From the NCBI GenBank assembly GCA_030167865.1, contig JALAGF010005392.1, forward strand, positions 51,051 through 71,050: a DNA stretch of 20,000 nt, in the 5' to 3' direction. Made by a program: the position numbers and the translations under genes. This document shows, in pieces, positions 1,270 to 19,870 of this stretch. Position 1 is the stretch's first letter. Every line of letters starts with the position of its first letter. Origin of the DNA: Craspedostauros australis. Taxonomy: Eukaryota. The notes beneath the pieces were generated by a model. That model saw nothing but the letters and a program-made list of their open reading frames with translations. It was not told the DNA's origin and made no database searches.

Positions 1270-3426
1270 ATGAAAGGCAACAACGACAGCAGTGGCCGAA
1301 GTCCAGCACCATCACCATCGTCGTGGATTGGTGTGGCACAAGGTTCAGATTTCCCCCTCTCGAACCTTCCATTCGGCGTATGTTCCCTCACAACGAACAA
1401 GGGACAGCGTGATGACGTGACATCCACCGCGAAGAGTCGGTGCGTCACCATTGTGGGAAGTACGATCGTCGATCTGCAAGTGCTACAGGAGGCTGGCTTG
1501 TTCGATGATATCGACCAGCTGGCAGCGCACTCCTTCTCCGAGCCATCGTTGGATGACTTCGTTTCGCATCCGCATCACGTTTGGTCACAGGTGCGTCAGC
1601 GATTGACATCCTTGCTCTCCGCGGATGGGGATGATGCATTGCACACAAACGAAGGGCTCAAGAGCATCGCCTTGCTCTCTGAAACGGACGTCGTCATGGG
1701 CCTTCCTCTCAAAATCTCAAGCTTGGCGGGATACTATTCGTCCCGTTCTCAGTTCGCCCAACTCGCAAGTGGCTCTGACACGGCAGATGGCAAAGGGCAG
1801 AGCGGGGGTACAGAAATGCCAAATGCACCATCCCTCCCCATCGGATACAACGCCAAGGCATCATCTGTGTTCGCGACTGGAACGTCAATAAATCGCCCCA
1901 ACCTGTCCTCTGGCGGTCAAGCTTCGAATGTTGGTGCGCCAACAGACTTGAAAGTGGAGGCATCCAAAGCACTGGATTTTGAAGCGAAGCTGGCGTTCGT
2001 CGTTGGCGGCCCGCCCAACGCTGCGGGCAAATCGGAGGCAGCAGCAGAGGCGCAGCAGCGCGTGTTTGGATACTGCCTCGTCAATGACTGGACGGCGCGC
2101 GATGTGCAAGCATCTGAAGCCATTCCTTTCGAATCCAAGAATTTCGCCACCACCATGTCACCATGGATTGTGACGTCGGAAGCGCTGCAGCCACTCGCAC
2201 CATCTCCACCGTCTGAATCTGCGGATACATCACCTGCGACGGTGGATTTTCACAACATCCAGGGCGCATCACCAGCGATCACCATCGATGTTCGAATTCA
2301 ACCAAAGGTGCCCTCAAGCAACAAGCAGCCGCTCTCTGTGGAACCCGTCTGCACGCCGGTATTCGGCCCTGATTGCTGGAGTGCCGCGCAACTACTCACC
2401 CATCATTTTTGGGCAGGCTCCGTGGTGAAGCCTGGCGACATCTTTATGATGTCCGCGCAATCCCAAAGTGATCCAAAGCTCTCCAGTAGTCTTTGGGAAC
2501 TAACCGACGGTGGCAAACATGAAGTGGATATCGGAAGCGATCAAACGAGAAAGTTCCTTCAAGATCGCGACACTGTTGTCATGAAAGGCTGGTGCTCGCA
2601 CAGTGCCAATCCATCTGTGGGGAGGATCGGCTTTGGACCCTGCACCTCGACGGTCCTTCCTCCTGATCCTCCTGAACCAACCAAGTCGCCATCGAGCGGC
2701 GACAATCCGCCGATGGCCACACCGTCATCTGGATTCCATTCCTTCAAGCTGTACGGGTACGCAACATCTTCCTCCACATGGCGTGTTCGTGTCGTGCTCG
2801 AAGCCAAGAGGATCACCTTTGAGAACATCCCATTGAACCTTCAGGCCGGCGAGCACAAGACGCCTGAGTTTCTCGCCAAGAATCCTCATGGACAGGTTCC
2901 CGTATTGGAATATACGCACACCGACGGAGACTCGAGCCAGACAAGGTACATCTCGCAGTCTGTCGCAATCATCGAGTTCTTGGATTCAATCTTCCCCAAC
3001 AAAAGGTCCTTGATTCCTCGCGATCCAATCGATTACATCGCAGCGCGGGAGATGGTGGAAATCGTGAACGCTGGAATCCAACCTCTGCAAAACAAGATGG
3101 TCGTTGCCAACCTGGAAAAGCTGTCTGAGGGCAAGATCGTTGGCAAGGAGTATGGGAACATGGTCATCGCCAAAGGGCTCAGAAGTTTTGAGACGCTGGT
3201 GAAGGCCCGCCAAGCCACGAACCCCGGTCCCTTCAGCCTTGGCACTTTCGCGCCGACAATCGCTGATGCCTACCTCATCCCACAGCTGTTCAACGCCGCG
3301 AACGTGTACGGCATCGATGTCATCTCCGATTTTCCGGTGCTGGCACAGGTGGAGGAGGCATGTTCCAAACACCCTTGGTTCATTGCGGCACATCCATCGC
3401 AGCAACCAGACGCACCCAGAACATGA
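1270..3426 (+). CDS. Fumarylacetoacetase-like domain fused to GST-zeta/maleylacetoacetate isomerase (718 aa from ATG 1270)
   Basis: FAH motifs: SDFPLSNLPFGV, LPIGYNAKASSV, LDFE, LVNDWTARDVQ, KNFATTMSPWIVT, RKFLQDRDTVVMKGWC, RIGFGPC. A Pro/Ser linker (~2650-2740) is followed by GST-zeta motifs: LYGYATSSSTWRVR, NPHGQVPVL, SQSVAIIEFLD, NAGIQPLQN, TIADAYLIPQLFNA, AAHPSQQPDAP. Uninterrupted ORF; the track start at 1252 is a GTG and the first ATG is at 1270. Confidence 0.92.
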   Translation: MKGNNDSSGRSPAPSPSSWIGVAQGSDFPLSNLPFGVCSLTTNKGQRDDVTSTAKSRCVTIVGSTIVDLQVLQEAGLFDDIDQLAAHSFSEPSLDDFVSHPHHVWSQVRQRLTSLLSADGDDALHTNEGLKSIALLSETDVVMGLPLKISSLAGYYSSRSQFAQLASGSDTADGKGQSGGTEMPNAPSLPIGYNAKASSVFATGTSINRPNLSSGGQASNVGAPTDLKVEASKALDFEAKLAFVVGGPPNAAGKSEAAAEAQQRVFGYCLVNDWTARDVQASEAIPFESKNFATTMSPWIVTSEALQPLAPSPPSESADTSPATVDFHNIQGASPAITIDVRIQPKVPSSNKQPLSVEPVCTPVFGPDCWSAAQLLTHHFWAGSVVKPGDIFMMSAQSQSDPKLSSSLWELTDGGKHEVDIGSDQTRKFLQDRDTVVMKGWCSHSANPSVGRIGFGPCTSTVLPPDPPEPTKSPSSGDNPPMATPSSGFHSFKLYGYATSSSTWRVRVVLEAKRITFENIPLNLQAGEHKTPEFLAKNPHGQVPVLEYTHTDGDSSQTRYISQSVAIIEFLDSIFPNKRSLIPRDPIDYIAAREMVEIVNAGIQPLQNKMVVANLEKLSEGKIVGKEYGNMVIAKGLRSFETLVKARQATNPGPFSLGTFAPTIADAYLIPQLFNAANVYGIDVISDFPVLAQVEEACSKHPWFIAAHPSQQPDAPRT

Positions 3427-4278
3427 ACGAGGTCGTGTCGAGCCGAGTAAAATAGAGCAGAGCAGAGCGAAGCGGAGTAGTTTGCTAGCACTCCCGGCCG
3501 CGGCATCAGCGAGGTGCCTGGACGCAGCATGAATGAGAACTCGGAGATCTACTAGTACGATTGTCTCCAGGGATCCAGCACTATTGCCATACTACCATAC
3601 CGTTATTGGACACAAGAACAAGTAGATAACAAAGCAGGACAGCTCAAACTGGGAGAGTCCTATTGACATGAAGCTGAGAATGCATGTCAACATCAACTTG
3701 GTTTGTGTATTGGTTTTGGTTCTGATTGCTTCGGATGAGAATTATAGTAGACTGCGGGTGTAGGATTGGGCAATCCTGTTGTTTGTCCGCAGGTGGTCAC
3801 AAGATGCTTGGACAAGATTCCAAGGCTCCATACAGGTTCTACATACGAATATGGTTGCGATGGTACCTTGACTCCACCAGCACCGGATGGAGATAGCGCA
3901 GAGCACCCTGGCTTTTTGCATATTGATTCGTTTGAGAGTGCCGTCGCTGGATCCGCCATCGTGGAGCCGCTTTCATTCTTTGAACTCGATTGGATTGGTT
4001 GCAGTCATGGCGAATGATCTCCCCATGCATTCCACCGTACGATCTAAGAGTGGAGAATCGTATTATATCTTGGAAGAGCAGAATATCTTGTCTCAAATGG
4101 AGCATTGATGATCAATCCGACAGGCAACCATGAAGCAGAGCTGACATTGCAGTTTCCCATAGTTTCTTCGTTGGCGTGACATTCTCTCGCGCGGCTCCAA
4201 ACTGGCCGCTAGATCCATGGTTGTGACGGCATGTCGTGGGTGCAACACGCCATTTCACTGTTCCACCAGTTGACATGC

Positions 4279-6038
4279 TTAGTTCAAACCGAACGACTGC
4301 TTGTAGAACGCCGTGATGGATTCGATGGAAAGGAGGATGATCATGGCGTGCGGTGCGCATCGTCCATAGTACGCAGAGAAACCGCCGAAGAAGCCGAGAG
4401 GTCCCTCGGTTCTTGCGATCTTCACGACACAATCCGCGATGCCCTTGTACGGCATCTCTCCTGTGACTGGGTCTGGCTTCATTGCCATCAAACGCGACTT
4501 GACCAAGTCGAATGGGAGGGAGAAGAGGGCCGCTGTGAATCCTGCTGTGGCGGAGGCTCCCAGACGAGTTGGAAGACTTGGTCCATCCACCATTGGATCA
4601 TTCAAGAGCCCTGCCACGATCTCCTTGGCTTGGTCGTAGCAGGCCATCATACCGACGTTCATGGACATACCACGCAGGATGTTTGGTGCCAAACCTTTGT
4701 ACAATGCGCCGACGCCCTCTTCTCTGCTCGTTCGGAGGAGAGCCTGTTGTGCATATGTACCATATGCCATGCGAAGGGAGTGGGAAATGTAGAGTAGATT
4801 GGAAGTAGTCAGCGCACGGCGTTGTTGAAATTTCTCACAATGGCAAATTCAACCAAATCGATGCGAAACAACGCAACGCAATGAAGAAAGTAAACATGGA
4901 AGTGTACGTGCATTCACAAAATCACCAACGCCTCCAACGCCTCCAATCCAGTCCGGTGACGCAAGCGACAGGATGCCAGCGACTTACATCAAAGACGTTC
5001 TTGTAATTCCTTCGGTCTTCCGGCTTGGCCATGCCATCGGCCTGTAATCGCACCAATGCAATGTCGAATGGTGTTCCTATGCACACGGCGATACTTCCGC
5101 TGGCCATGCCCGACAGGGCCTTCTGGACGAAGCTGATTGGCTTTCCGTCGTTAATCTCCACCAGCTTGTCCGAAAAGGTTCGGTGCAGTCCAATACGCGC
5201 TGTTCCGTACACCATCTGACGGCCGATGGCGGCATCAACTCCCTTGTAGACACTGGTGATACCATCTGCTTTGACCATCTGGGAAATGAGGGTCGGGAAG
5301 GACGGGATCGGCTTTCCTGGGTTCAATTGTCCATAAATTTGCATTCGGACCTGTTGTGATGCATCGCATTGTGTGGCATTGCGTTGCATGGCAGCGGATG
5401 AGATTGAGCATGGATTTGGGTTGCGAGTTTGCCGATGAAGTTATTGAATCGAATTGAGCCGAATCGCATCAGATACAATGCCATGCCAAGTCAACGGCGG
5501 TTGATGCAATGCAGATGAGCGGAAATCCGCGCGTGTTTGAATTGAAATTGATTGCGCCACAAAACACGGTGTTGCCAATGGCAGAGATGCGTTTTATTGA
5601 GTTCCATTGCATCAAGCCCATGAACGGCCACCGATTCCGGGACGACGATGATGGCAATTGGAATGATTGGGAATTGATCACAGCGCGGGTGAGTTGAAGG
5701 CAGATTGGGAGAGCGAATTGACGCGCACACGCTTCGCCTTCGGTGGCATTTTCCTCCTTCACGTTCTTGGCCAACAGGACAGCCAAAGTCATTGCAAGGA
5801 GCCTTTCGAGCAAGATGATTGGCATTTGGCTCCGTCTCAGCTTGGCTGAGCTTGGCTGAGCTTTGTATTGCCACCGCAGGCTGTGATGCATGCATTGCAA
5901 TGCACTCCAATGCACTTCAACGCAATGACCCACCTTGGCAAGATCGATCGGGTGAATGACGATGCTGGCAAACGTTGCCGCGGTTCCACCGCAGACGAAC
6001 GGCTGCAGCGTCTTGGCGATCGATGATTGTTCAGGCAT
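4279..6038 (-). CDS. Mitochondrial carrier family protein, 2-oxoglutarate/malate (dicarboxylate/tricarboxylate) carrier-like; 3 exons, 310 aa
   Basis: Exons 6038-5934, 5350-4988 and 4743-4279 join in phase 0 across GT..AG introns (5933-5351, 583 nt; 4987-4744, 244 nt). Three Px[DE]xx[KR]x[RK] signatures: PIDLAK|VRMQ, PFDIALVRLQ, PFDLVKSRLM. Subfamily motifs RQMVYGTARIG, RRNYKNVFDAL and YYGRCAPH are typical of OGC/DTC (SLC25A11-like) carriers. Confidence 0.93.
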
Positions 6039-8136: not shown

Positions 8137-9276
8137 TCATCCTGTCGAAATGAAGTGTTCGGAGCGGTTGATGTTTAAATCATAGTGGAATTCCCAATGA
8201 TTCCAAACGAAACCCAGCTCGTTCAATCTGGCAATGCGAGCCGCGGTCAGGTGTGTGGATGAGCGCACATGCCCGTTGCGATTGCCATCGCGAGGGAATT
8301 GCTTGGCGTACAGCTTGCGTTGCGAGCTCACCCAGTTGGCGAGTTGCTGGTTGGCATGGGAGATGGGAACCAGGCAGTTGCCGTGTTCCTCTTTGTATGC
8401 CTTGAGCTGCTCGAAGCGCGTCTCCCATTGCCGTTCTCGATTGGACATCCACCAGTTGCGATCGATATCTTCCAAAGCACGGATCTGATCCTCCTGCAAC
8501 GCGCAGGGTTCTCCACGCCGACGATTCATAAATTCCCTGCGCTGCCGGTACACCCACTGTCCCAGCGACGATTGGCTTGATAACTTCGCGAGTGGCGATG
8601 TTTGCGTGAACTGCTCCAGCTCGCCAAACCGTCGCCACCAGATGGAATGCGTGCGTTGCTGCTGAAGAGGCGAGTCGATGGCAACGTGCGCTGCCGGGAC
8701 GCTCGAGGCAACGCCCTTCTGCTTGGTGCTTAATGCCGATGCATCCCAGCAGAATCCAATGCTACTCAATTGTTGAATCCGCTGCTGCGTCAGAGACGAG
8801 CTGATTCCATTCTTGTGCTTGCGGTAGTGCTGCCGTTGCTTGTTTACGAAGTTTCCCAATGACGGGTTAGGTGGATACCGCTTGGGAACGAGCATGTGGC
8901 CATGCTCTTCCTTGAACTCCATCAGCTGATTGATCCGATCATTCCAAGTTGAAGGTGCACAGATTGGTGTTGCAGTGGCTGTGGCTGTGTCTGTCGTTGC
9001 GATTGACTGCCCATCATCTATCGTAGTGCATTGTAAGGCGATGAATGAAGCCTCCCTTCGATGATGCTCCCAAGCAAAGCGAACGTCATTCCTTCTCTCG
9101 TTTCTGCTTGGCTTGGCGTTTGTTCGTGGATGCCAATGCCTCGCACATAGCTGCGGTTGTTGTTGTCGCAGTCGTCGCCTCAATCGTCCTCCTGCCGATG
9201 AAAGAGCCTCTGTTGACAATGTGAAGCACCAAAGCAACAGCAATCTCTGAACATGCTGAAACGGTGCCATGGCCAT
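8137..9276 (-). CDS. Helicase-associated (HA, PF03457-type) repeat protein with N-terminal signal/transit-like leader
   Basis: Repeats: WNDRINQLMEFKEEHGHMLVPKRYPPNPSLGNFVNKQRQHY…LTQQRIQQLSSIGFCW; degenerate WWRRFGELEQF…LGQWVYRQR…QIRALEDI; WETRFEQLKAYKEEHGNCLVP…LANWVSSQRKLY…LTAARIARLNELGFVW. No helicase core. Start at 9276 or 9270 (MAMAPFQ…) preferred over 9420. Confidence 0.85.
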   Translation of the reverse strand: MAMAPFQHVQRLLLLWCFTLSTEALSSAGGRLRRRLRQQQPQLCARHWHPRTNAKPSRNERRNDVRFAWEHHRREASFIALQCTTIDDGQSIATTDTATATATPICAPSTWNDRINQLMEFKEEHGHMLVPKRYPPNPSLGNFVNKQRQHYRKHKNGISSSLTQQRIQQLSSIGFCWDASALSTKQKGVASSVPAAHVAIDSPLQQQRTHSIWWRRFGELEQFTQTSPLAKLSSQSSLGQWVYRQRREFMNRRRGEPCALQEDQIRALEDIDRNWWMSNRERQWETRFEQLKAYKEEHGNCLVPISHANQQLANWVSSQRKLYAKQFPRDGNRNGHVRSSTHLTAARIARLNELGFVWNHWEFHYDLNINRSEHFISTG

Positions 9277-10319
9277 GGAATTTGGCTTTTCGCCTCCCTC
9301 GAAAGGTTCTCCTGTGTCACGATCCTTAGTGTTGTTGTTGGTATCGACTTCGGTGTTGTGGGTGACGCACAGCATGAAGGTCCGTGAGAGTTCGGCTTCG
9401 CTCCTGGCTCGCACGACCACGCATCTTCAGAGAGGTAGGTACCCTGTCGTGGATGGTCTGGAGTGGATGTGGGGTGTTGTGGTGTGGTGTGATGTGATGT
9501 GATGGACATCATCGCACAAACGTTGGCGGCGCCTCATGTTGTTCTCTGATGGCCAATTCGTCTGGACGTCGTACGGCAAGAAAAACGTCAGGTGGCACCC
9601 GGAGGTTAAACTATCTCATCTCCGTTTGTTCTTTGGCATTCTCAAGTCGCAGATGACGTCACAGAATACGATGGTGTGGTGATTGGACGTACTCACGGTC
9701 AGACTTTCGCGCCACGAGTGAACCGAAACATCAATCGTGTTTGGGCATTTCCACCAAGTTGTGATCGTGTCTCGGATCGTCGTTTTTGTCGCAATCCCCA
9801 CCATGTCACATCATCATCGTCATCATCTCTGACCCCTTGCTGTCTTCGACCCGCCTGTCGCAACGCACAACCCATCATCTCTCTTGGGTCCACGATCGAG
9901 GGAACTTCGCTCCGAGGCGATGTCCACACCAAAGTCGAGATTGTATGAGGAATCAATGAGAGGATGAACACGAACCAAACATGAACTAAACACCATGCTA
10001 ACATCAACCAAACAACACAAGATCCTTGATGATACTCTCCCCTTGTGTGATGCGTGTACTCCGTTCACATCCAAACCAAGTCGGACTCGTACCCCCACTC
10101 TGCCCTTTGGCCAAACAGCCACCTTCGCCCTCAGAAAAGCACCACAGCTTCCATCCTCATCACCACCGCTGAAGCAACACGCAACATCGCCACAACCTTA
10201 GCTGCTCACGCTTCAGCAGAAGTAGCAACACCAACAACCCCTTGCTCCTTCCTCCCATTCTTGCTCTCGCCCTCGTTCGTTGACCACCGTCGTTCGCACA
10301 CAAAACGAGTACAGCGATA

Positions 10320-11805: not shown

Positions 11806-14800
11806 TCACTTGGGTGCTTCTGTCGGACGTCGAATTTGGAAACCTGTGCGCGAGTGGACTTGCATCCACTTGGCTAGTGGTCCGGCGGCCATGCGGGTAT
11901 GGAGTAGCCTTGCGGCCTGCTCCATCCACAGGGCTACGCTTGCTGCGTCGGCGTCCCTTCCTGGGTAAGACTTGCGGATGCGCTTGTGCGCAATATTGTT
12001 GTCTTGGAGCTTGCCGGCCAGATCTTCCGACCTGGCTCGCATGGCCTCCATCATATCTTGCTCAGCTGACTCGGCTTCGTGAAACATGTCATGATTTCGA
12101 AGCCGCCATTGCTCCCACGCTACTTTCCATACGCGTCGGGCCAGCTCTGCCCCCCACGTTAGGGGCGATCGTCGCGATCCCTGACTCACCAGGAAGTCTG
12201 TCTGTATGCTCACCCACTTGGACCCGATCATTCCTCGCGAGAGGGAGATTTGGCCTATCTGTCGTTGCTGCTCCACTGCTTCCGCCGTTGAGCCTCGCAC
12301 GCTAGTCGATTGCAGGTAGGCCGCTCCGGCGAACTGGCTTTTCAACATCGCTGTCATTGCCGCCGTGACTTGTGGACTCGTCGGGTACTTCGCCATCCAC
12401 ATCCGGATTCCGAGTAGGTGCTTCTTCGTCGCCTCCTTCCGGTGCTCCGCGGGGCATTCCCAGATGTGCTTCGAAGTCTCTTCCGCACCACAACTGGGGC
12501 ATTGGCTGGATTCTCGGAGCCCCCACTGCTTCATGCGTCGTCCCACGGCTGCTTCCCCTGCGACCAGCTTGAACGTCAGCGCCGCGCTGGCGTGATCCAG
12601 ACCCTTGATTGCCCTGCTTACCACCGGCCAACTGACTTCCGCTGCCTGGTGTACCACTTTCCGTTTGCGTAGGATCTCGAAGGTTGATGCGGCCAGACCT
12701 TCCTCGGCTATATGTGCGTAGCGCACCGAGGTTATCTTCATATGCCTGAAGAGGCATACTTCCTCCCCTTCGATGATCCCATCATAAGGCGTGGCTCCCT
12801 GGTTGGATCGTCGTTGCGCCCCGGCCAGTCTGTCAGCTTCCACGTTCATTCTCGCCCAGTCGTCCAGTTCGTGCCATGGCTTGCCGTCGTCTTGGTGTCC
12901 CTTCACGTGTCTTCCGACGATCTCTATCGGTAGTCGTCGCATTTTGTGCCTGGTGGCCCTCATGAGATCTGCGTCGGTCGCTTTGGCGGTCATGTACCAC
13001 TCGGTGTCCAGAGCCTTGAGGGCTCCCACGTTGTCGCATCCTACGGTGGCTTTTCCGGCGAGGATTCGCTGGGAGGTGCATATGCTTTGTAGCATTACCA
13101 TGAGACTGTACAGCCCGGACAGCTCCGCCCGGTGCGACTGCATGGTGTCGCTGCTGCGAGGTGTCCCGCACGTCACCCAGATCTTGGTTGTCTGGCCTCG
13201 AGACTTCCCGGTGACGACCGCGCCTGCTGCGCCTTGCCCGTCGGCGACGGACCCGTCACTGCAAGCGGTGAGCGTGCCGTCGCGGATGGCTTCTCCCAAT
13301 ATTGCTTCCTCTCCTTCCATCTCCCATGCCGCTATCGCCCACGCCGAGGATTCTGGCAGTTGCCTGATGGTCTCTTGTAGGTTAAGCGCTGCCGGCTGGG
13401 GCATGCCTGGTATGCCTGGCGCCGATGCCGTGATCGTGATGTTGGGTCCGCTGTGGTATCCGTCCACCAGTCCCGTGCCGTGCGTCGTCCTGCCTCTGGT
13501 TTCGGTGTATTCTTTCTTGCGTCCACGTCGAGGGATGCGCCTGTAATATATTGCGTCTTGGCCTGCCGCCGTCACTCTGTCTGCTCCGGGGTCATACCGG
13601 AATTGGGGCACCTGGGAGCTGTAGCTGCGCCATTGACCCAGGGACTTCGCCAGCGTTCTTGTCTGCCCTCGTGTGGGCGGGTAACACCGGTCGATCGCCT
13701 TCTTCCATTCCTTCCACTGTGTGGGCGTGGGCTCTCCTACCGGGGGCCATTGCAGCCGGCTCCGGCGCAGTGGTATTGGCCCAGGAGAAGTAGACTCGGC
13801 TAGGACCTCGTCTCCGCGTACATTCGTTATATCGGAAACCCATAGCACTTTCTTCGCAATGCGGCATTGGTTGACTGCTTGGAGCGAAGCCTTGGGTAGG
13901 TCGAGCGCAAGCACCCGTTCCATGATGAACGAGTCGCCTTCTCTGGGCTTCGGTATTGACTCCGTCTCGAACTGGAGCTTGACGCTCACGTGATTTAGCT
14001 CTGTCCATACTGATTGCATCCAGGATGGAGACAGTACCCCTTTCCATTGGCAATGCTTCCGTGTGAACACCTGGTCCACTCCCGCTTGCAACTCCAGAAT
14101 GCTCAGCGCATTGCGCATTAGCTTTCCGGTGATCGTAGGTTGTCCCCAGTGCTTGACGATTTCCTCGATATGGCGAGTGATCTGAGTGTAATACAGGTGC
14201 GGGATCCCGAGGCCGATGGTCTTCCGTGGCCCGAACACCAGGGCTCGCGACACGTTTCGTTGTATCCCCATTGCAGGCAACGCTGATTGAAGCATTGGCC
14301 TCATTACGCCTTCGGATTCCTCCTTGGAGAACGTGGCGCTTGCGAGCGGATATTCCAGAGTCTTCATAATGGTGGAGTGTAGGGCTACTTTCGCCTGTCC
14401 TCGGAGAAGACCTCCCCGTCGAACTGCGTCCGCCCACTTGCGGGCTTTTTGGGTGTACATCCGCACGTTGTCTTGCTGATCTCCGTCGTGACGGACCATG
14501 ACTCCAAGCGCTTTCCTTGACTGGCTGGCTGACAGGCGAAGTAAAGTCGACCTTTCGTTGCTGTCCGGCTGCCTGATGCTGATGCTCCCTGGGATTTCTT
14601 CCTCATCGCAGTACGCCCATTCCTTGCCGTCCCATTTGAATGCTAGCAGGTACCAGTAGCTCTTTTTTGGCTCGAGGGCACCGCCTGTGGCTCTGAGCAT
14701 ACCTTCCCACGTGTCGACCACCCGTTGTATCTCCTTTATGCATTCCTCGTTGTTGGTCGGGTCCGTCTGTATGGTGTGGATAATGTCTGTGTCGTCGACG

Positions 14801-17490
14801 AAGGAGAAGCACACTAGCTGGACCGTCTCGTTGGTCACGGGGTGTCGTGTGGTGAATCCGTAGCCTCTTTCGGCCATGGTCTTCATCAATGGTGAGCTCA
14901 TGGCGACCCATCCGGCTGGCGATATTCCCAGTCCTTGCAGTAGTCCTTGAAGTTTGGGCTCTCTTTTCGGATAGGTGGTTCGTGACAATCCGTAACCTGT
15001 TAGCACGTGATGCTTCATCGCCTCCACTGCTGCTACCACGCTCGTGCTTACGACTGGTGGCACTCCGATGCTACGCATGCTGAGTTGCAATGGTACGTGT
15101 GCCATTCGGTCGTAGCAACTTTTCGCGTCATTCGAGCACACGAAGCTTGTGCACCCTGTGCTCCGGATTATGTCGCTTGTGAGCCGGTTGTTCAGGCTTA
15201 CTTCCGCCGCGCTGCGCTGCTTCCGACTTCCGTATTGCTCTTCGGGTAGTAGGCCGTGGGCTTCTGCGTGGCTCATCATTTCCCGCCCTATCTTTTTGAG
15301 GTTGGCATTGAAGTCTCCTTCTACTAAGCTGATGGTACGGAACCTTTCAACTCTGTAGTTGCCTTCTTCTTTCAGCAGCGTGATGTCTGAGCAGCGGAGC
15401 CACCTTTGCAGGTTGTACCCTGACCTTAGCGAGACCTCGCGCATGGCTGCATCAGCCGTTGCGACCTCGGGGATTTTGGCGTTGGCCTTCCACATGCCGA
15501 AGTGCAGACCTGATGGCCCTGATGCCGTGCGCTCTCGAGCTTTCGCCCAAGCTTGCTGGTGCTCCTTGGTGGTAATCTCAAACCGGATATCGCTCCACAA
15601 TGGTGACTGGCTGGTTGCGTGCAGCTGCTCCAGCAATGCCATGGAGTACTGGTCCATGGAGTTTCCGTGCCGACGTGCTGCGAATCTGATGCCTCCTTGC
15701 TCCAAGCTGCGCTTGAACCCGTCGGATTGCATCGGCGTGACATATGCTTGCCTATACTTCTGTTCGTTGGCTTTCATGCACTGGGCGATGACTTCCTGCT
15801 CTTTGCTGAATGTGCGTTCTTCCCCATTTCCATCCTTGGCGATGACTGCCGTGACCTTGCTTCCGCTAGAGTCTCCTTGTATTGCGCGTTTGATGGACCT
15901 GAAGGTCTCCGCTGTCTCCTCTCTTGTGATGAGGATGGCGAGTGCGGTGCTGGCGGGTGTGTTGCCTGCCTCCGCCATTTCGTCCGCTCGTTGTTCGAGG
16001 AATGTCCGTCTGTGTGTGAGAGCTTCGCGTTTGATTCGTTTCCAGTGCTCATGGGCTTCTTTTCTTTTCCGTTGGATGTCGTCCAGAGTGAGGTGTGCCG
16101 TTGGTTGGCGTACGCCTGCTGCTTTTTTGGCACGGTCATACCATCTGGCACTGACCCTTGATCCCTGCCGTCGCTTCCACGCTATCTCCCAGAACTTTTT
16201 CTCCATCGCCGCCTTTTTCGCTTTCGGGGAGTATGGCACTCTGCCCGCGAACACTCGTCTGGATCCCCGTTCGGCCTGCGTCACGATTCTCGAGCGCTCC
16301 GTGTCGATGTCCTCGATCTCCGCGATAATAGCGTCCGTCATTGCTTCACTCCTTCGCACTGCTGCCAACACTGCCGCCGACCGCTGTGTGAGCTTGGCGT
16401 CTTCATAGCCGGCTGTCACTGCTTTCTGATATCTTTTCAGCGTGGCTGGCTTGTTGGTCTGCAATCGTCTGCCTTCGAACTTCTGTGTCGGTCGGCTGCG
16501 TGTGCCGAAGATGGATTCACTGGATATTTCTATCCAGGCTGTGCGGTGGTCCCAGCTTCCGAATTGACTGTAACCCGCTCGTTGTACCATCACTGATTCG
16601 GACACCCAGATGCTGTCTATCACTCTTTCCGATTCCGATCGTATTTGGGTGGACACCGGTGCTTGGCTCGGATGTTTGCTGAGTATTGTTTCCTTCAGCC
16701 CTTGTCGTTGTAGCATCGTTGCCATCTGCGAGTTTGTGACTTGCATGTTGATGTCGCCACCAATGATGATTGTTTCTCCCGCTTCGTGCCATTTGTGTAT
16801 CTCCTCTTCTAGGTCTTGTATGAGCATTGCAATGGGCGCCGTTGTGATCCCTTCAGACTCCAACCAGGTTGCGTGCTGATTTGCTACCGTGCGCGGCCCT
16901 TTTCCGGATGACGTTGGGATGTAGACGCTGACCACTCTCACGGCTTTGTCGTCTTTTCCTCGAAGTGTCATGCTGGCCCATCTGCCTAATTTCCTTGGGT
17001 CCTCGTGGGAGAGTATGTGCCTTCCCGCTATGTTGTTGATGAGCAAGCATCCTGTCCCTCCCCATTGCCTTACCGGGCCCATTTTTTCCTGTTGGTTGTG
17101 TGCCATGTTTTGGCGCCACGAGCTGAACTGGCCTTTGATGCGCGAGTGCCACGAGTGGCGTTTCGCGACCTTGGACCAGTTCAAGCCAATCTCGGAGAGC
17201 AGAACCACGTCGAGCTTCAGTTGTTTAGTCCACTCCCATGCGTCTCTGTTCTTCCAATGGCCGGTCTCTTCGGGTAGACAGCCCACGTTGAGAGCACCTA
17301 TGCGTAATGTGTGGTGCCCTTTGTCGCGAGGGTTGTCTCCCCAGTAGGAGACCTGGGGGTCGCGCTCATTCCGACGCGCGTCCTCCCCTGATGCATCCGT
17401 TAGGCTTGCGGAGGTGGGTGTTGATGCTTCCCGTTCCTCCAGCCCAACGTTAATCAGTGGATTGGCCCCCTGCCGTGCTTGAGCCGGGGG
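11806..17490 (-). CDS. Retrotransposon ORF2 (pol): APE endonuclease, reverse transcriptase, RNase H, CCHC zinc motif; stop-to-stop frame of 1894 codons with no AUG before the endonuclease
   Basis: APE: LRIGALNV, DVVLLSE, VVSVYIP, IIIGGDIN, IDSIWVS, WDHR. RT: RTISLVEGDFN, EQYGSRK, SNDAKSCYDR, LQG..ISP, FSFVDDTD (~14790), LEPKKS, LGV. RNase H: CSDGS, RAELSG, GCDN, HVKGH, NVEADRLA (~13260-12830). CPSC…H…C at ~12454-12502. I extended the frame by hand upstream of the track's GTG (17286) to the TGA at 17493-17491. Confidence 0.93.
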   Translation of the reverse strand, partial: PPAQARQGANPLINVGLEEREASTPTSASLTDASGEDARRNERDPQVSYWGDNPRDKGHHTLRIGALNVGCLPEETGHWKNRDAWEWTKQLKLDVVLLSEIGLNWSKVAKRHSWHSRIKGQFSSWRQNMAHNQQEKMGPVRQWGGTGCLLINNIAGRHILSHEDPRKLGRWASMTLRGKDDKAVRVVSVYIPTSSGKGPRTVANQHATWLESEGITTAPIAMLIQDLEEEIHKWHEAGETIIIGGDINMQVTNSQMATMLQRQGLKETILSKHPSQAPVSTQIRSESERVIDSIWVSESVMVQRAGYSQFGSWDHRTAWIEISSESIFGTRSRPTQKFEGRRLQTNKPATLKRYQKAVTAGYEDAKLTQRSAAVLAAVRRSEAMTDAIIAEIEDIDTERSRIVTQAERGSRRVFAGRVPYSPKAKKAAMEKKFWEIAWKRRQGSRVSARWYDRAKKAAGVRQPTAHLTLDDIQRKRKEAHEHWKRIKREALTHRRTFLEQRADEMAEAGNTPASTALAILITREETAETFRSIKRAIQGDSSGSKVTAVIAKDGNGEERTFSKEQEVIAQCMKANEQKYRQAYVTPMQSDGFKRSLEQGGIRFAARRHGNSMDQYSMALLEQLHATSQSPLWSDIRFEITTKEHQQAWAKARERTASGPSGLHFGMWKANAKIPEVATADAAMREVSLRSGYNLQRWLRCSDITLLKEEGNYRVERFRTISLVEGDFNANLKKIGREMMSHAEAHGLLPEEQYGSRKQRSAAEVSLNNRLTSDIIRSTGCTSFVCSNDAKSCYDRMAHVPLQLSMRSIGVPPVVSTSVVAAVEAMKHHVLTGYGLSRTTYPKREPKLQGLLQGLGISPAGWVAMSSPLMKTMAERGYGFTTRHPVTNETVQLVCFSFVDDTDIIHTIQTDPTNNEECIKEIQRVVDTWEGMLRATGGALEPKKSYWYLLAFKWDGKEWAYCDEEEIPGSISIRQPDSNERSTLLRLSASQSRKALGVMVRHDGDQQDNVRMYTQKARKWADAVRRGGLLRGQAKVALHSTIMKTLEYPLASATFSKEESEGVMRPMLQSALPAMGIQRNVSRALVFGPRKTIGLGIPHLYYTQITRHIEEIVKHWGQPTITGKLMRNALSILELQAGVDQVFTRKHCQWKGVLSPSWMQSVWTELNHVSVKLQFETESIPKPREGDSFIMERVLALDLPKASLQAVNQCRIAKKVLWVSDITNVRGDEVLAESTSPGPIPLRRSRLQWPPVGEPTPTQWKEWKKAIDRCYPPTRGQTRTLAKSLGQWRSYSSQVPQFRYDPGADRVTAAGQDAIYYRRIPRRGRKKEYTETRGRTTHGTGLVDGYHSGPNITITASAPGIPGMPQPAALNLQETIRQLPESSAWAIAAWEMEGEEAILGEAIRDGTLTACSDGSVADGQGAAGAVVTGKSRGQTTKIWVTCGTPRSSDTMQSHRAELSGLYSLMVMLQSICTSQRILAGKATVGCDNVGALKALDTEWYMTAKATDADLMRATRHKMRRLPIEIVGRHVKGHQDDGKPWHELDDWARMNVEADRLAGAQRRSNQGATPYDGIIEGEEVCLFRHMKITSVRYAHIAEEGLAASTFEILRKRKVVHQAAEVSWPVVSRAIKGLDHASAALTFKLVAGEAAVGRRMKQWGLRESSQCPSCGAEETSKHIWECPAEHRKEATKKHLLGIRMWMAKYPTSPQVTAAMTAMLKSQFAGAAYLQSTSVRGSTAEAVEQQRQIGQISLSRGMIGSKWVSIQTDFLVSQGSRRSPLTWGAELARRVWKVAWEQWRLRNHDMFHEAESAEQDMMEAMRARSEDLAGKLQDNNIAHKRIRKSYPGRDADAASVALWMEQAARLLHTRMAAGPLAKWMQVHSRTGFQIRRPTEAPK

Positions 17491-19870
17491 TCAAGGAGTG
17501 GTTGGGCTCTACCTCTGCATGTTTGGCCCGTAACTCCTCGATGATGCGGTTTTTCTCGATGAGTTCTTGTCGTTGTTCCTCCAGTTTTTGTCTGTTGGTC
17601 TCCGCTTGCTGCGCTTCTCGTGCTTGTCTCATGACTGTTGCTAGCTCGTCCTTCCTCATTTCCTCACTTTCATCGGTGGACTCTGGTATGCTGTAGATGG
17701 TGGACGCGCGGGATTTTCCGCATTCGGATCTGAACGTTTGGAATGACTCGTCTTCCAGTCTTGGTTTTTTCGCCACGGGGGATCCTGGGAGGGAATCGTC
17801 TTCTATTTCTTCCATCCCTTCGATCTCCACTGGTCCCATCTCCTCATCCATTATGAAGTCCAGCTCTCCTTCGAACTCCACGTCCTCGTACCCTTTGCCC
17901 GTTGCGTCTCTGGCGTATCCAGCACTCATCTCCAGAATGTTGTCGTCGAACCAATCGTCGGTGGATGAATTGATTTCCGTTCTGCACCGGATGGCGATGG
18001 AATTGAGGATGTTCTTTGCCTGGTCGTAGCGGTCGTCGAACGCTACTATGCTGAGCGCGTCTTCGTCTCCGTCCACCATATGGGTGGTGCTGACGTCGTG
18101 GATGAATGGATTCCCTTCCGGTGTGCGCTGATTGCTCAGGAATTCGCGAAGGGTGGTGGTTTTCGTGTCCCCGTCGGGGGTGTCGAGAGCGACGTCACCG
18201 TCGAGCCGAAAGCGCTTGAGCTGCCGAACGTAGCGTTGGTGCTTGCGAGTCATCTTTCTGAGCTTTGCGGCTGTGTCGGCGCCGATGGTGGCAGTGCCCG
18301 GATTTGGGACAAACCTATAGTTCAGCCCTCCTCGGTCCGCGCCCTTCATGTTGAACACTTTGCCCAGCGCCTTTGCCACTTTCCGTGCATGAGTGGTGTT
18401 TGCGTGAAGGTGTAGGGCGACCCACGGCGTGTTGATCCACGTGCCTCCTTTCTTTTTGTGCTCATCTCTTGTTTCGTCCGACACCTGCCCCAGGAATTTG
18501 GTCCTGCCTCCTACTTTCAGTTTGGGCTGAATCTTTTCCAGCAGGCCGTTGATAACTCCGATTGTCTGTTTTGCGTTGGTGAAGTTTCCTGAGTAGGCTA
18601 GGAATCCGACATCCGTGATGTTCTCCGCGTCCTTTAGGTCTCTGATGTACGCGTACTCTCCCGTGGCATATCCTCCTTCCATTTCTGCTCGGCGACTTGT
18701 CAGTGCGTTGAGGTTCTGGCTACCACCCAGCTTTAGCTGCATGTATACGTCCGTCTCCTTGGCTGTAGGTTTGGCCCTGCACACGAACTTCTTGAGCTCG
18801 TCCCAGTTCGTTGGGATTGGCTCGCTCTCGGAAATGGTGCCTGCCGACTTGTGCCGCTTGTACCAGGGGTATATGACGAGCTTGGGCTCTATCGTTAGCG
18901 CGTGGTCAAACCACAATTCGAATCTGGATTGGAAGTCTCGGATTGGCGTCGATGAATTTTTTGGGATGGCCAGTCGGAGGTCGAAGCGTTCGTTGAATTT
19001 TCGTTTGGGGGTTGCCATCATTTGGGTTGAGGATGCCTGTACTCTGATCCATGGTGCGTCGTCGCCTGGTTTCTGGGCTTCCGGAGTTTCCTCAACGGAT
19101 CCATCTGGTGCCACTACTCTGACTTTGGTTTTTGGAGGCTTTTTGACCACGTGTTGTGTTAACGATGTCTGTCGGGTGCGTTTGACGAGGATTGATTCCA
19201 ACTGGATTCCATCCATGTCATCGTCGCTGTCAGAGGATGCGTCTGCTGCCATGATTACATCGGAGTATTGGCATCCCATGTACCGTACGGCTGCTGCCCA
19301 TGCCAACGTCATTTGGTTCCTTGCCATGGATTTGTTGTCCACGTGCATTTCCATCTTAAAGCACTCAGCTGGGTCCGTCTTGGATAGGTCTGCCACCAGT
19401 TGCTTGATTTTCACACGTTGGGGAGCATCTTGTGCCACTCGGTGGGTTCCGAATTTGTTGGTTCGCCCGTCCATCACCTTCTGGAAAAACTCCGAGAGCT
19501 CCTGTGTGCTGGGCATGTGGGACGATGCTGTAGATGTGTCCTTGCCTTCCCACTCCGCTTTCTGGATGTACATTCGTTTGGCTCTGTCATGGAGTGAGGA
19601 TGGTCCTTCGTCATAGACGTCTGTAGCCCTGATGGCTTTGGCGTTTTCCGCCACCTGCTTTGGAAGTTTTTTCCATCGTGTTGTTTCCGGTTCGTACCAC
19701 TGGATGGCGATTCTGTTCTGTTTCTCCATCATTTCGGCTGCCACAACCTTCGGATCTGGCTCCGGAGGTGGCTTGGGTCCTCCTGTTTCTCCTGATGGTG
19801 TGCCTTGGTTCATTGGGCGCTCCGTATCGTTGGAAGTTTGCTTCAAACTTGTGCCGTTTGTTGACGTCAT
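17450..19870 (-). CDS. Retrotransposon ORF1 (806 aa; putative RNA-binding/chaperone protein with acidic tract and C-terminal coiled coil)
   Basis: Long ATG ORF (ACCATG context) directly upstream of ORF2 on the same strand. Disordered N-terminus, globular-looking middle, D/E-rich segment and heptad-like MRQAREAQQAETNRQKLEEQRQELIEKNRIIEELRAK. Role assigned by position. Confidence 0.85.
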   Translation of the reverse strand: MTSTNGTSLKQTSNDTERPMNQGTPSGETGGPKPPPEPDPKVVAAEMMEKQNRIAIQWYEPETTRWKKLPKQVAENAKAIRATDVYDEGPSSLHDRAKRMYIQKAEWEGKDTSTASSHMPSTQELSEFFQKVMDGRTNKFGTHRVAQDAPQRVKIKQLVADLSKTDPAECFKMEMHVDNKSMARNQMTLAWAAAVRYMGCQYSDVIMAADASSDSDDDMDGIQLESILVKRTRQTSLTQHVVKKPPKTKVRVVAPDGSVEETPEAQKPGDDAPWIRVQASSTQMMATPKRKFNERFDLRLAIPKNSSTPIRDFQSRFELWFDHALTIEPKLVIYPWYKRHKSAGTISESEPIPTNWDELKKFVCRAKPTAKETDVYMQLKLGGSQNLNALTSRRAEMEGGYATGEYAYIRDLKDAENITDVGFLAYSGNFTNAKQTIGVINGLLEKIQPKLKVGGRTKFLGQVSDETRDEHKKKGGTWINTPWVALHLHANTTHARKVAKALGKVFNMKGADRGGLNYRFVPNPGTATIGADTAAKLRKMTRKHQRYVRQLKRFRLDGDVALDTPDGDTKTTTLREFLSNQRTPEGNPFIHDVSTTHMVDGDEDALSIVAFDDRYDQAKNILNSIAIRCRTEINSSTDDWFDDNILEMSAGYARDATGKGYEDVEFEGELDFIMDEEMGPVEIEGMEEIEDDSLPGSPVAKKPRLEDESFQTFRSECGKSRASTIYSIPESTDESEEMRKDELATVMRQAREAQQAETNRQKLEEQRQELIEKNRIIEELRAKHAEVEPNHSLTPGSSTAGGQSTD

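Follow-up and report, generated by a model that had tools for sequence, protein, structure and literature searches.

The DNA considered here is a 20,000-nucleotide stretch of Craspedostauros australis (contig JALAGF010005392.1, positions 51,051 to 71,050 of the forward strand), referred to below as the window. It carries a gene in which a fumarylacetoacetate hydrolase (FAH) is joined to a maleylacetoacetate isomerase (MAAI) of the zeta class of glutathione S-transferases (GSTs). The product appears to be a bifunctional FAH-MAAI fusion of the diatom type, of which only the MAAI half would still be an enzyme. On balance, the fusion is probably an MAAI whose attached FAH module lost its catalytic ability long ago and still experiences some constraint, although a weakened one. 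An initial annotation of the window had pointed to a degenerate FAH active site in the fusion, and this observation was confirmed at the level of sequence. A pseudoenzyme is characterized by the loss of residues essential for catalysis in a recognizable homologue, and the FAH half, judged by its alignments, fits this description. The usual label of this gene, ‘fumarylacetoacetase’ (EC 3.7.1.2), is probably wrong because FAH catalytic residues are lost while MAAI is intact.

The gene occupies positions 1270..3426 of the forward strand as a single exon (718 codons from the first ATG). Its open reading frame (ORF) is open from position 1252 (724 codons from a GTG) to a TGA stop at 3424-3426, which agrees with the initial annotation that the frame is intact over 700 codons. 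Four parts were recognized on the one polypeptide, all on the forward strand. The FAH N-terminal domain (residues 38-152; 1363..1707) shows a normal level of conservation and matches Pfam FAA_hydrolase_N (PF09298) at 73.8 bits. The FAH catalytic, or C-terminal, domain (residues 153-470; 1708..2661) matches FAA_hydrolase (PF01557) at residues 186-468 with 85.3 bits, and its active site is degenerate by the alignments and invariant-column counts described below. A Pro/Ser-rich linker (residues 471-495; 2662..2736) follows, with a pLDDT below 50 at residues 476-492. The last part is an intact zeta-class GST, or MAAI, domain (residues 496-722; 2737..3417), in which Pfam GST_N is found at residues 497-578 (52.2 bits) and GST_C_2 at residues 646-699 (23.7 bits, slightly below the cut-off). 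This architecture, and the grouping of the protein with diatom members, place it in the diatom FAH-MAAI family. The linker also contains an in-frame ATG directly before the GST domain (Met487, 2710-2712), which could in principle yield a free MAAI. No equivalent of Met487 was found to be conserved in the other aligned fusions.

Among solved structures, the best relatives of the first 470 residues are fumarylacetoacetate hydrolases (mouse 1qco and 1hyo, E ~4e-58 by HMMER) and those of the last 230 residues are maleylacetoacetate isomerases (4igj, E 5e-38). An AlphaFold2 (AF2) model of the fusion protein, with a pLDDT of 79.4 and a pTM of 0.78, was used for loop placement only. In Foldseek comparisons it reached a TMt of 0.85 to 1qco and of 0.86-0.90 to MAAI and GST zeta structures. 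The two Pfam matches, the structural relatives, and the Foldseek score all identify the two-domain FAH fold in the first part of the protein. The loops of the catalytic domain that were modeled with low confidence (residues 173-193, 221-232, 288-295, and 320-337) coincide with the altered loops and with insertions specific to the window protein.

The active-site residues of FAH have been assigned to metal binding (D126, E199, E201, and D233), water binding (T350), the oxyanion hole (R237, Q240, and K253), and a catalytic dyad (H133 and E364), according to the accessible part of the source (PMC3631164). Four segments of the window protein depart from this pattern. In the motif ISSLAGYYSSRSQ (1729..1752), the metal ligand D126 is replaced by G160 (1729-1731) and the general base H133 by Q167 (1750-1752), as seen in a HMMER alignment to mouse FAH and against 120 homologues. 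In the motif DFEAK (1978..1989), E199 is kept as E244 and the metal ligand E201 is replaced by K246 (1987-1989), a substitution that is common to the Stauroneis constricta orthologue discussed below. The loop at 2113..2127 is shortened to SEAIP; W242 has become Ser, Y244 has become A290, and P246-L247-G248 is deleted by both HMMER and MAFFT. Finally, S348-G349-T350 reads Met-Ser-Ala in the motif PGDIFMMSAQSQ (2434..2469; S401 and A402, the latter at 2455-2457), so that the G349-T350 loop is replaced. Arginine is also missing at the position of R142, which aligns with Lys or Asp depending on the alignment and adjoins a 6-residue insertion.

Six active-site equivalents are kept relative to mouse FAH, namely E199 (E244), D233 (D279), R237 (R283), Q240 (Q286), K253 (K296), and E364 (E416). 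The metal site therefore retains two of its four ligands (G160, E244, K246, and D279 stand at the four positions), the dyad retains E416 with Q167 in place of the histidine, and the oxyanion hole is complete. The substitutions and the retained set listed in the initial annotation were all recovered in the HMMER alignment to mouse FAH, and the range given there, 1711-2510 (residues 154-420), covers the part of the catalytic domain that is affected. The window protein shares the two-domain architecture of mouse FAH (1qco, 1hyo, and 1qcn). It differs from it in D126G, H133Q, E201K, T350A, Y244A, the deleted PLG, and the missing Arg at R142, and in the addition of Gly/Ser-rich loop insertions and a C-terminal GST.

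These changes would leave the FAH half unable to hydrolyze fumarylacetoacetate, with two of four metal ligands, the His base, the T350 loop, the Y244-PLG lid, and R142 gone. Could it still be a working fumarylacetoacetase that uses shifted or substitute catalytic residues? The fold and the six active-site equivalents are retained, and the Pfam score of the catalytic domain is well above threshold. However, among the 120 homologues H133 is His in all 120, and D126, E201, and T350 are each unchanged in 119. The sole exception at the last three positions is P0012, itself a candidate inactive form. Substitutions at such fixed sites lie far outside what chance would produce. Two independent alignment methods, HMMER and MAFFT, put the substitutions at the same positions, which speaks against residues retained at shifted sites. 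A third argument comes from the count of lost invariant columns given next. A working FAH is barely credible in light of this evidence, and the description of the domain as catalytically dead is well supported by the alignments.

Damage to the fusion is confined to the FAH catalytic domain. Invariant columns were defined as FAH columns with at least 99% invariance across 118 canonical FAHs (70 in total: 7 in the N-domain and 63 in the catalytic domain), and GST invariants as the 29 columns invariant among 13 fusions. The window protein keeps 49 of the 70 FAH columns, compared with 69-70 in 12 controls. By domain, it keeps 7/7 in the N-domain, 42/63 in the catalytic domain (21 lost), and 29/29 in the GST. 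Eight canonical fusions subjected to the same catalytic-domain test keep 62-63 of the 63 columns, a loss of 0-1. No clear enrichment of losses was seen among the known catalytic residues, with 4 of the 10 residues named in the accessible part of PMC3631164 replaced as against 21 of the 70 invariant columns. Sequence identity shows the same domain specificity. Compared with 15 other fusions, the window protein averages 45% identity over the N-domain, 37.8% over the catalytic domain, and 46% over the GST; among those 15, conservation is highest in the catalytic domain (50-68%). Per-domain trees of 16 fusions (quick LG+G4) gave end branches for the window protein of 0.65 (N-domain), 1.39 (catalytic domain), and 0.52 (GST), versus medians of 0.39, 0.265, and 0.39. 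The rate of the catalytic domain in the window protein is about five times that in canonical fusions.

The MAAI half, in contrast to the FAH half, is intact in sequence and is predicted to be a working isomerase. It carries the motifs SSS-TWRVR, QVPVL, QSVAIIEFL, and GIQPLQN, corresponding to the SSxWRVR, QVP, QSxAIxEYL-like, and QPLQN motifs that we take to define the zeta class. The GST fold is supported by the GST_N match, by the 4igj match, and by the Foldseek scores, and every fusion-invariant column is kept. The domain matches solved zeta GST / MAAI proteins (PDB 4igj, 2cz2, and 1fw1) at E 5e-38 to 2.5e-23. Whereas such an enzyme is otherwise a free protein of ~215 residues, here it makes up the C-terminus of a 718-residue chain.

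The closest relative of the window protein also has a degraded FAH catalytic domain. In an exhaustive HMMER search of 1.84 billion representatives, the top match and sole closer relative found was P0122, the JGI twin of P0270. P0270, a member of the P0122 cluster, is the full-length 620-residue product of a Stauroneis constricta MMETSP/EukProt transcript. In a careful tree search on N-domain and GST columns (26 rows), the window protein and P0270 formed a clade with 100/100 support, which is sister (99/98) to a clade holding Cylindrotheca. The two proteins are separated by 0.71 changes per column in the N-domain and GST and are identical at 149/223 GST positions (67%) and 62/122 N-domain positions (51%). 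They share E201K and R162K. H133Q is also present in P0270 by pairwise alignment; this assignment depends on the alignment because the stretch is gapped in the large alignment. No further member of the dead clade was found beyond P0122/P0270, either in the exhaustive HMMER search or in a search with P0270 (83 matches). A canonical FAH named for S. constricta was likewise not found in a search with the canonical fusion P0002 (best 120 of 7999), the P0270 search, or the cluster look-ups, in which most rows are unnamed, and this is no evidence of absence.

P0270 is intact in the same domains as the window protein, with 7/7 invariants kept in the N-domain and 28/29 in the GST. Its catalytic domain is more eroded, with 17 of the 63 invariants kept compared with 42 in the window protein. 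Further losses in P0270 are R237 to Gln, Q240 to Ala, K253 to Met, and a deletion of the E364 region, and deletions make the protein ~100 residues shorter. All 21 catalytic columns lost in the window protein are also lost in P0270, and none of the 17 that P0270 still has is lost in the window protein (hypergeometric p 2.5e-4). The dead state is found in both proteins, and the inactivation is therefore placed before the split of the two lineages. The catalytic domain would have continued to erode at a raised rate since then.

A second dead-FAH fusion was found in the ENA proteins P0012/P0271. It carries D126N, E201Q, T350R, E364D, and an altered Y244-PLG loop. P0012 is sister to two canonical fusions, Amphora coffeiformis P0340 and P0010 (support 100/100), and a clade of the window protein with P0012 was rejected by the approximately unbiased (AU) test (p 0.00028; 14 fusions, with P0015-P0017 and stand-alone FAHs left out). 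On these trees, the putative inactivation of P0012 was shown to be independent of that in the window lineage, that is, a case of convergence. The columns that were lost overlap. Of the 21 that are gone from the window protein, 14 are also gone from P0012, compared with 6.3 expected (p 2.8e-5).

What has happened to the rest of the dead module since its inactivation is a question on which the evidence is divided. The initial annotation had described a pseudoenzyme that was kept, with simple relaxed selection on a duplicate as the alternative. The ‘dead’ part of that description stands on the residues and loops listed above. The ‘kept’ part stands in a weaker sense, supported by the dead orthologue, by the intact N-domain, by a core of catalytic-domain invariants, and by P0012. 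In its strongest form, relaxed selection becomes plain decay, in which the FAH module has no function, the frame is open only through the downstream MAAI, and the remaining conservation is decay that has not yet finished. The open frame itself is no evidence of a function for the FAH domain because MAAI is translated downstream in the same frame. Selection on MAAI would purge stops and frameshifts from the FAH part, and so the frame must stay open in any case.

Several observations weigh in favor of plain decay and against constraint on the module. The consensus kept in the window protein relative to canonical fusions, from the most to the least conserved class, is ~0.67, 0.62, 0.52, 0.59, and 0.63, the even loss expected from unselective drift. 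GC content at third codon positions (GC3) is 0.566 in the catalytic domain, below the 0.636 of the N-domain and the 0.672 of the GST. Catalytic-domain identity between the two dead orthologues is as low as 33% (74/227, plus 96 gapped columns), and each is closer to live enzymes than to the other; the window protein is ~39% identical to canonical fusions there, and pairs of canonical fusions whose GSTs have diverged to a similar degree reach 65-73%. Large pieces of core segments are deleted in P0270, whose Pfam score for the catalytic domain is down to 34 bits. The in-frame insertions and deletions specific to the window protein sit in low-confidence loops. Derived states common to the dead orthologues amount to two or three residues, and no conserved new state was seen. 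The AF2 model is weak evidence that the FAH part folds because it was built on an alignment of live homologues. The constraint argument is also thin, being drawn from three dead sequences with uncertain alignments in the eroded loops.

The pattern of what remains argues in the other direction. All three dead forms keep 7/7 invariants in the FAH N-domain, with Pfam scores (73.8-81.9 bits) near those of live fusions (85.6-85.9 bits). Sixteen of the 63 catalytic-domain invariants, E199 and D233 among them, are still found in each of the three, compared with 7.6 expected under independent losses. The nesting of the losses of the window protein within those of P0270 points the same way. At the N-domain and GST divergence between these two proteins, an unconstrained domain would be expected to be far more scrambled than one that keeps 67% of its invariants. 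Relaxed selection accounts for the fast evolution of the catalytic domain and for the low similarity of the dead orthologues there, and falls short at the retained N-domain and catalytic core. Plain decay of the whole module, the strongest competing explanation, is considered rather unlikely. The simplest reading of the alignments is that the formerly invariant sites fall into two classes: sites needed for catalysis only, which would now be free, and sites related to the fold, which would still be held. Purifying selection would still act on the N-domain of FAH and on a core of beta strands in the catalytic domain. One metagenome scan for DNA of relatives usable for the ratio of nonsynonymous to synonymous changes (dN/dS), made with weakly specific patterns, returned 80 loci at 26-37% identity that were stand-alone FAH-like and none of them close.

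An inactive domain kept within a multi-enzyme fusion has a parallel in yeast Ura2, in which a dihydroorotase-like domain is inactive and its neighbors are active. The comparison is an analogy only, as the pathway and fold are different and the dead domain is internal in Ura2 and N-terminal in the window protein. For the FAH-MAAI fusion, the most likely reason for retention would be that a misfolding or aggregating N-terminal module harms the attached MAAI. Monomeric or destabilized FAH has been reported to aggregate, and N-terminal mutations to lower its kinetic stability, in the accessible part of PMC6721957. Such aggregation would make it plausibly costly for the module to unfold while joined to an MAAI that is needed. 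A positive structural role for the dead module is possible.

The initial annotation had also suggested that the dead module serves as a metabolite sensor. In the fullest version of this idea, the pocket has been repurposed as a metal-independent enzyme or ligand sensor that uses E199, D233, R237, Q240, K253, and E364, with K246 replacing the metal ion. All six residues are kept in the window protein and five in P0012, where E364 is Asp, and a lysine stands at the metal-ligand position in both the window protein and P0270. The orthologue nevertheless has Gln, Ala, and Met in place of R237, Q240, and K253 and lacks the E364 region, and this does not fit a retained sensor. Position 201 of P0012 is Gln rather than Lys, the loops that bind substrate show the lowest model confidence and the greatest alteration, and few derived residues are shared between the dead orthologues. 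A repurposed pocket is very improbable given these differences.

The proposed MAAI carrying a dead FAH module belongs to a family that is itself well represented. Diatoms widely carry canonical FAH-MAAI fusions, which go under the annotation ‘fumarylacetoacetase’ (among the matches listed, the best 120 of 7999). Named members come from Fistulifera solaris, Mayamaea pseudoterrestris, Seminavis robusta, Amphora coffeiformis, Thalassiosira profunda, and Cylindrotheca fusiformis. The window protein has the same domain order and a similar length and is nested in this family. It differs from the canonical members checked in that these have GDYTDFYSSREH, LDFELE, EYVPLGPF, and GDLLxSGTISG, which the window protein does not; in a 20-sequence motif table, the FAH motifs are kept in 8/8 full-length two-domain fusions. 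In Phaeodactylum tricornutum, the gene Phatr3_EG02215 has been listed as the FAH and shown to be expressed, and it has both FAH and MAAI annotations, for which two genes were suggested as a possibility, according to the accessible part of the source (Pan et al., 2020; PMC7780933). No description of an inactive FAH domain was found in a literature search.

Fusions in the reverse condition, with intact FAH motifs and a degenerate GST, were also found. These are P0015, P0016, P0358, P0301, P0401, and Nitzschia inconspicua P0377/P0394, which have lost the SSxWR, QS, and QPLQN motifs (motif table and cluster look-up, whole set). P0015 and P0016 keep 13-14 of the 29 GST invariants, have GST end branches of 1.7-1.9, and show no significant Pfam GST match. 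Seminavis robusta has two different fusion-type proteins, the full P0335 and the short P0395. P0395 is one of a group of short forms, with P0302, P0315, P0124, and ~10 similar clusters, of 484-545 residues that are labeled ‘maleylacetoacetate isomerase’ and begin inside the FAH catalytic domain. They are without the N-domain and the D126/H133 stretch and otherwise consist of a canonical FAH remainder and a GST. The short forms may reflect prokaryote-style gene calling that reported second exons as ORFs, or they may be a genuine short paralogue.

The reciprocal forms bring in the possibility of complementary subfunctionalization, in which this copy kept MAAI after a duplication, a sister copy kept FAH, and the dead module pairs with the live FAH to pass on fumarylacetoacetate. 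The two fusion-type proteins of Seminavis robusta are in line with this idea, as is the fact that FAH works as a dimer, according to the accessible part of PMC6721957. Two observations stand against it. No organism with both a dead-FAH and a dead-GST form was found among the proteins examined. In addition, PNWLHLPVGYHGRASS, which lies within the dimer-interface stretch given in the accessible part of PMC3631164, reads PNAPSLPIGYNAKASS in the window protein (6/16 changed) and is mostly deleted in P0270. The suggestion in the initial annotation of a scaffold, or of a heterodimerization handle that would tether MAAI to an active FAH, is not supported by this degenerate segment. Subfunctionalization with pairing is quite improbable for this gene. 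In a broader version, diatom fusions would repeatedly lose one function by domain death rather than gene split. One duplicate would keep MAAI, as in the window protein, S. constricta, and P0012, and its partner would keep FAH, as in forms like those of Nitzschia inconspicua, while dead FAH stays folded by pairing with live FAH and so couples both steps. This version is unlikely as a whole. Three FAH queries gave no second FAH in the 20-kb window by tblastn. Any FAH activity that this organism possesses would be encoded elsewhere.

As a whole, the window is of eukaryotic, diatom-like character, and its other features lie downstream of the fusion gene on the reverse strand. A mitochondrial carrier gene (Pfam PF00153) in at least two ORF pieces is found at 4279-6038. 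Introns are implied by its split over ORF pieces, while the adjoining FAH-MAAI gene has none. An ORF at 8137-9420 encodes three helicase-associated (HA, PF03457) domains (E 1.2e-50), and the HA-domain family is expanded in diatoms. Two long ORFs, of 1826 aa (11806-17286) and 806 aa (17450-19870), have no Pfam match at E 0.001; the region that holds them is strongly AT-skewed (-0.25 to -0.44). The start of the 1826-aa ORF resembles, by eye only, the endonuclease-type N-terminus of a retroelement. In run X1, guessed to be RNA, two contigs were identical to positions 2839-3696 and 3702-3800 of the window; they are uninformative on transcription or on the FAH part.

Genes of this architecture are annotated as ‘fumarylacetoacetase’ and used as the FAH step in metabolic reconstructions of diatoms. 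If the FAH half is dead, the gene would supply MAAI only, and the organism would either have another FAH or be unable to carry tyrosine breakdown through to fumarate and acetoacetate. Accumulated fumarylacetoacetate is toxic in animals. The fusion would also be a clean natural case of fused pathway enzymes, here the last two of tyrosine breakdown, losing one activity. In three dead-FAH forms, which trace to at least two independent events, the lost invariants form overlapping sets, and other diatoms have a live FAH with a dead GST. The overlap of the lost invariants may offer a way to tell residues of catalysis from residues of the fold by sequence alone. With the reverse forms and the two fusions of Seminavis robusta, the idea that duplicated members of this family went on to lose complementary domains becomes a hypothesis that can be tested.

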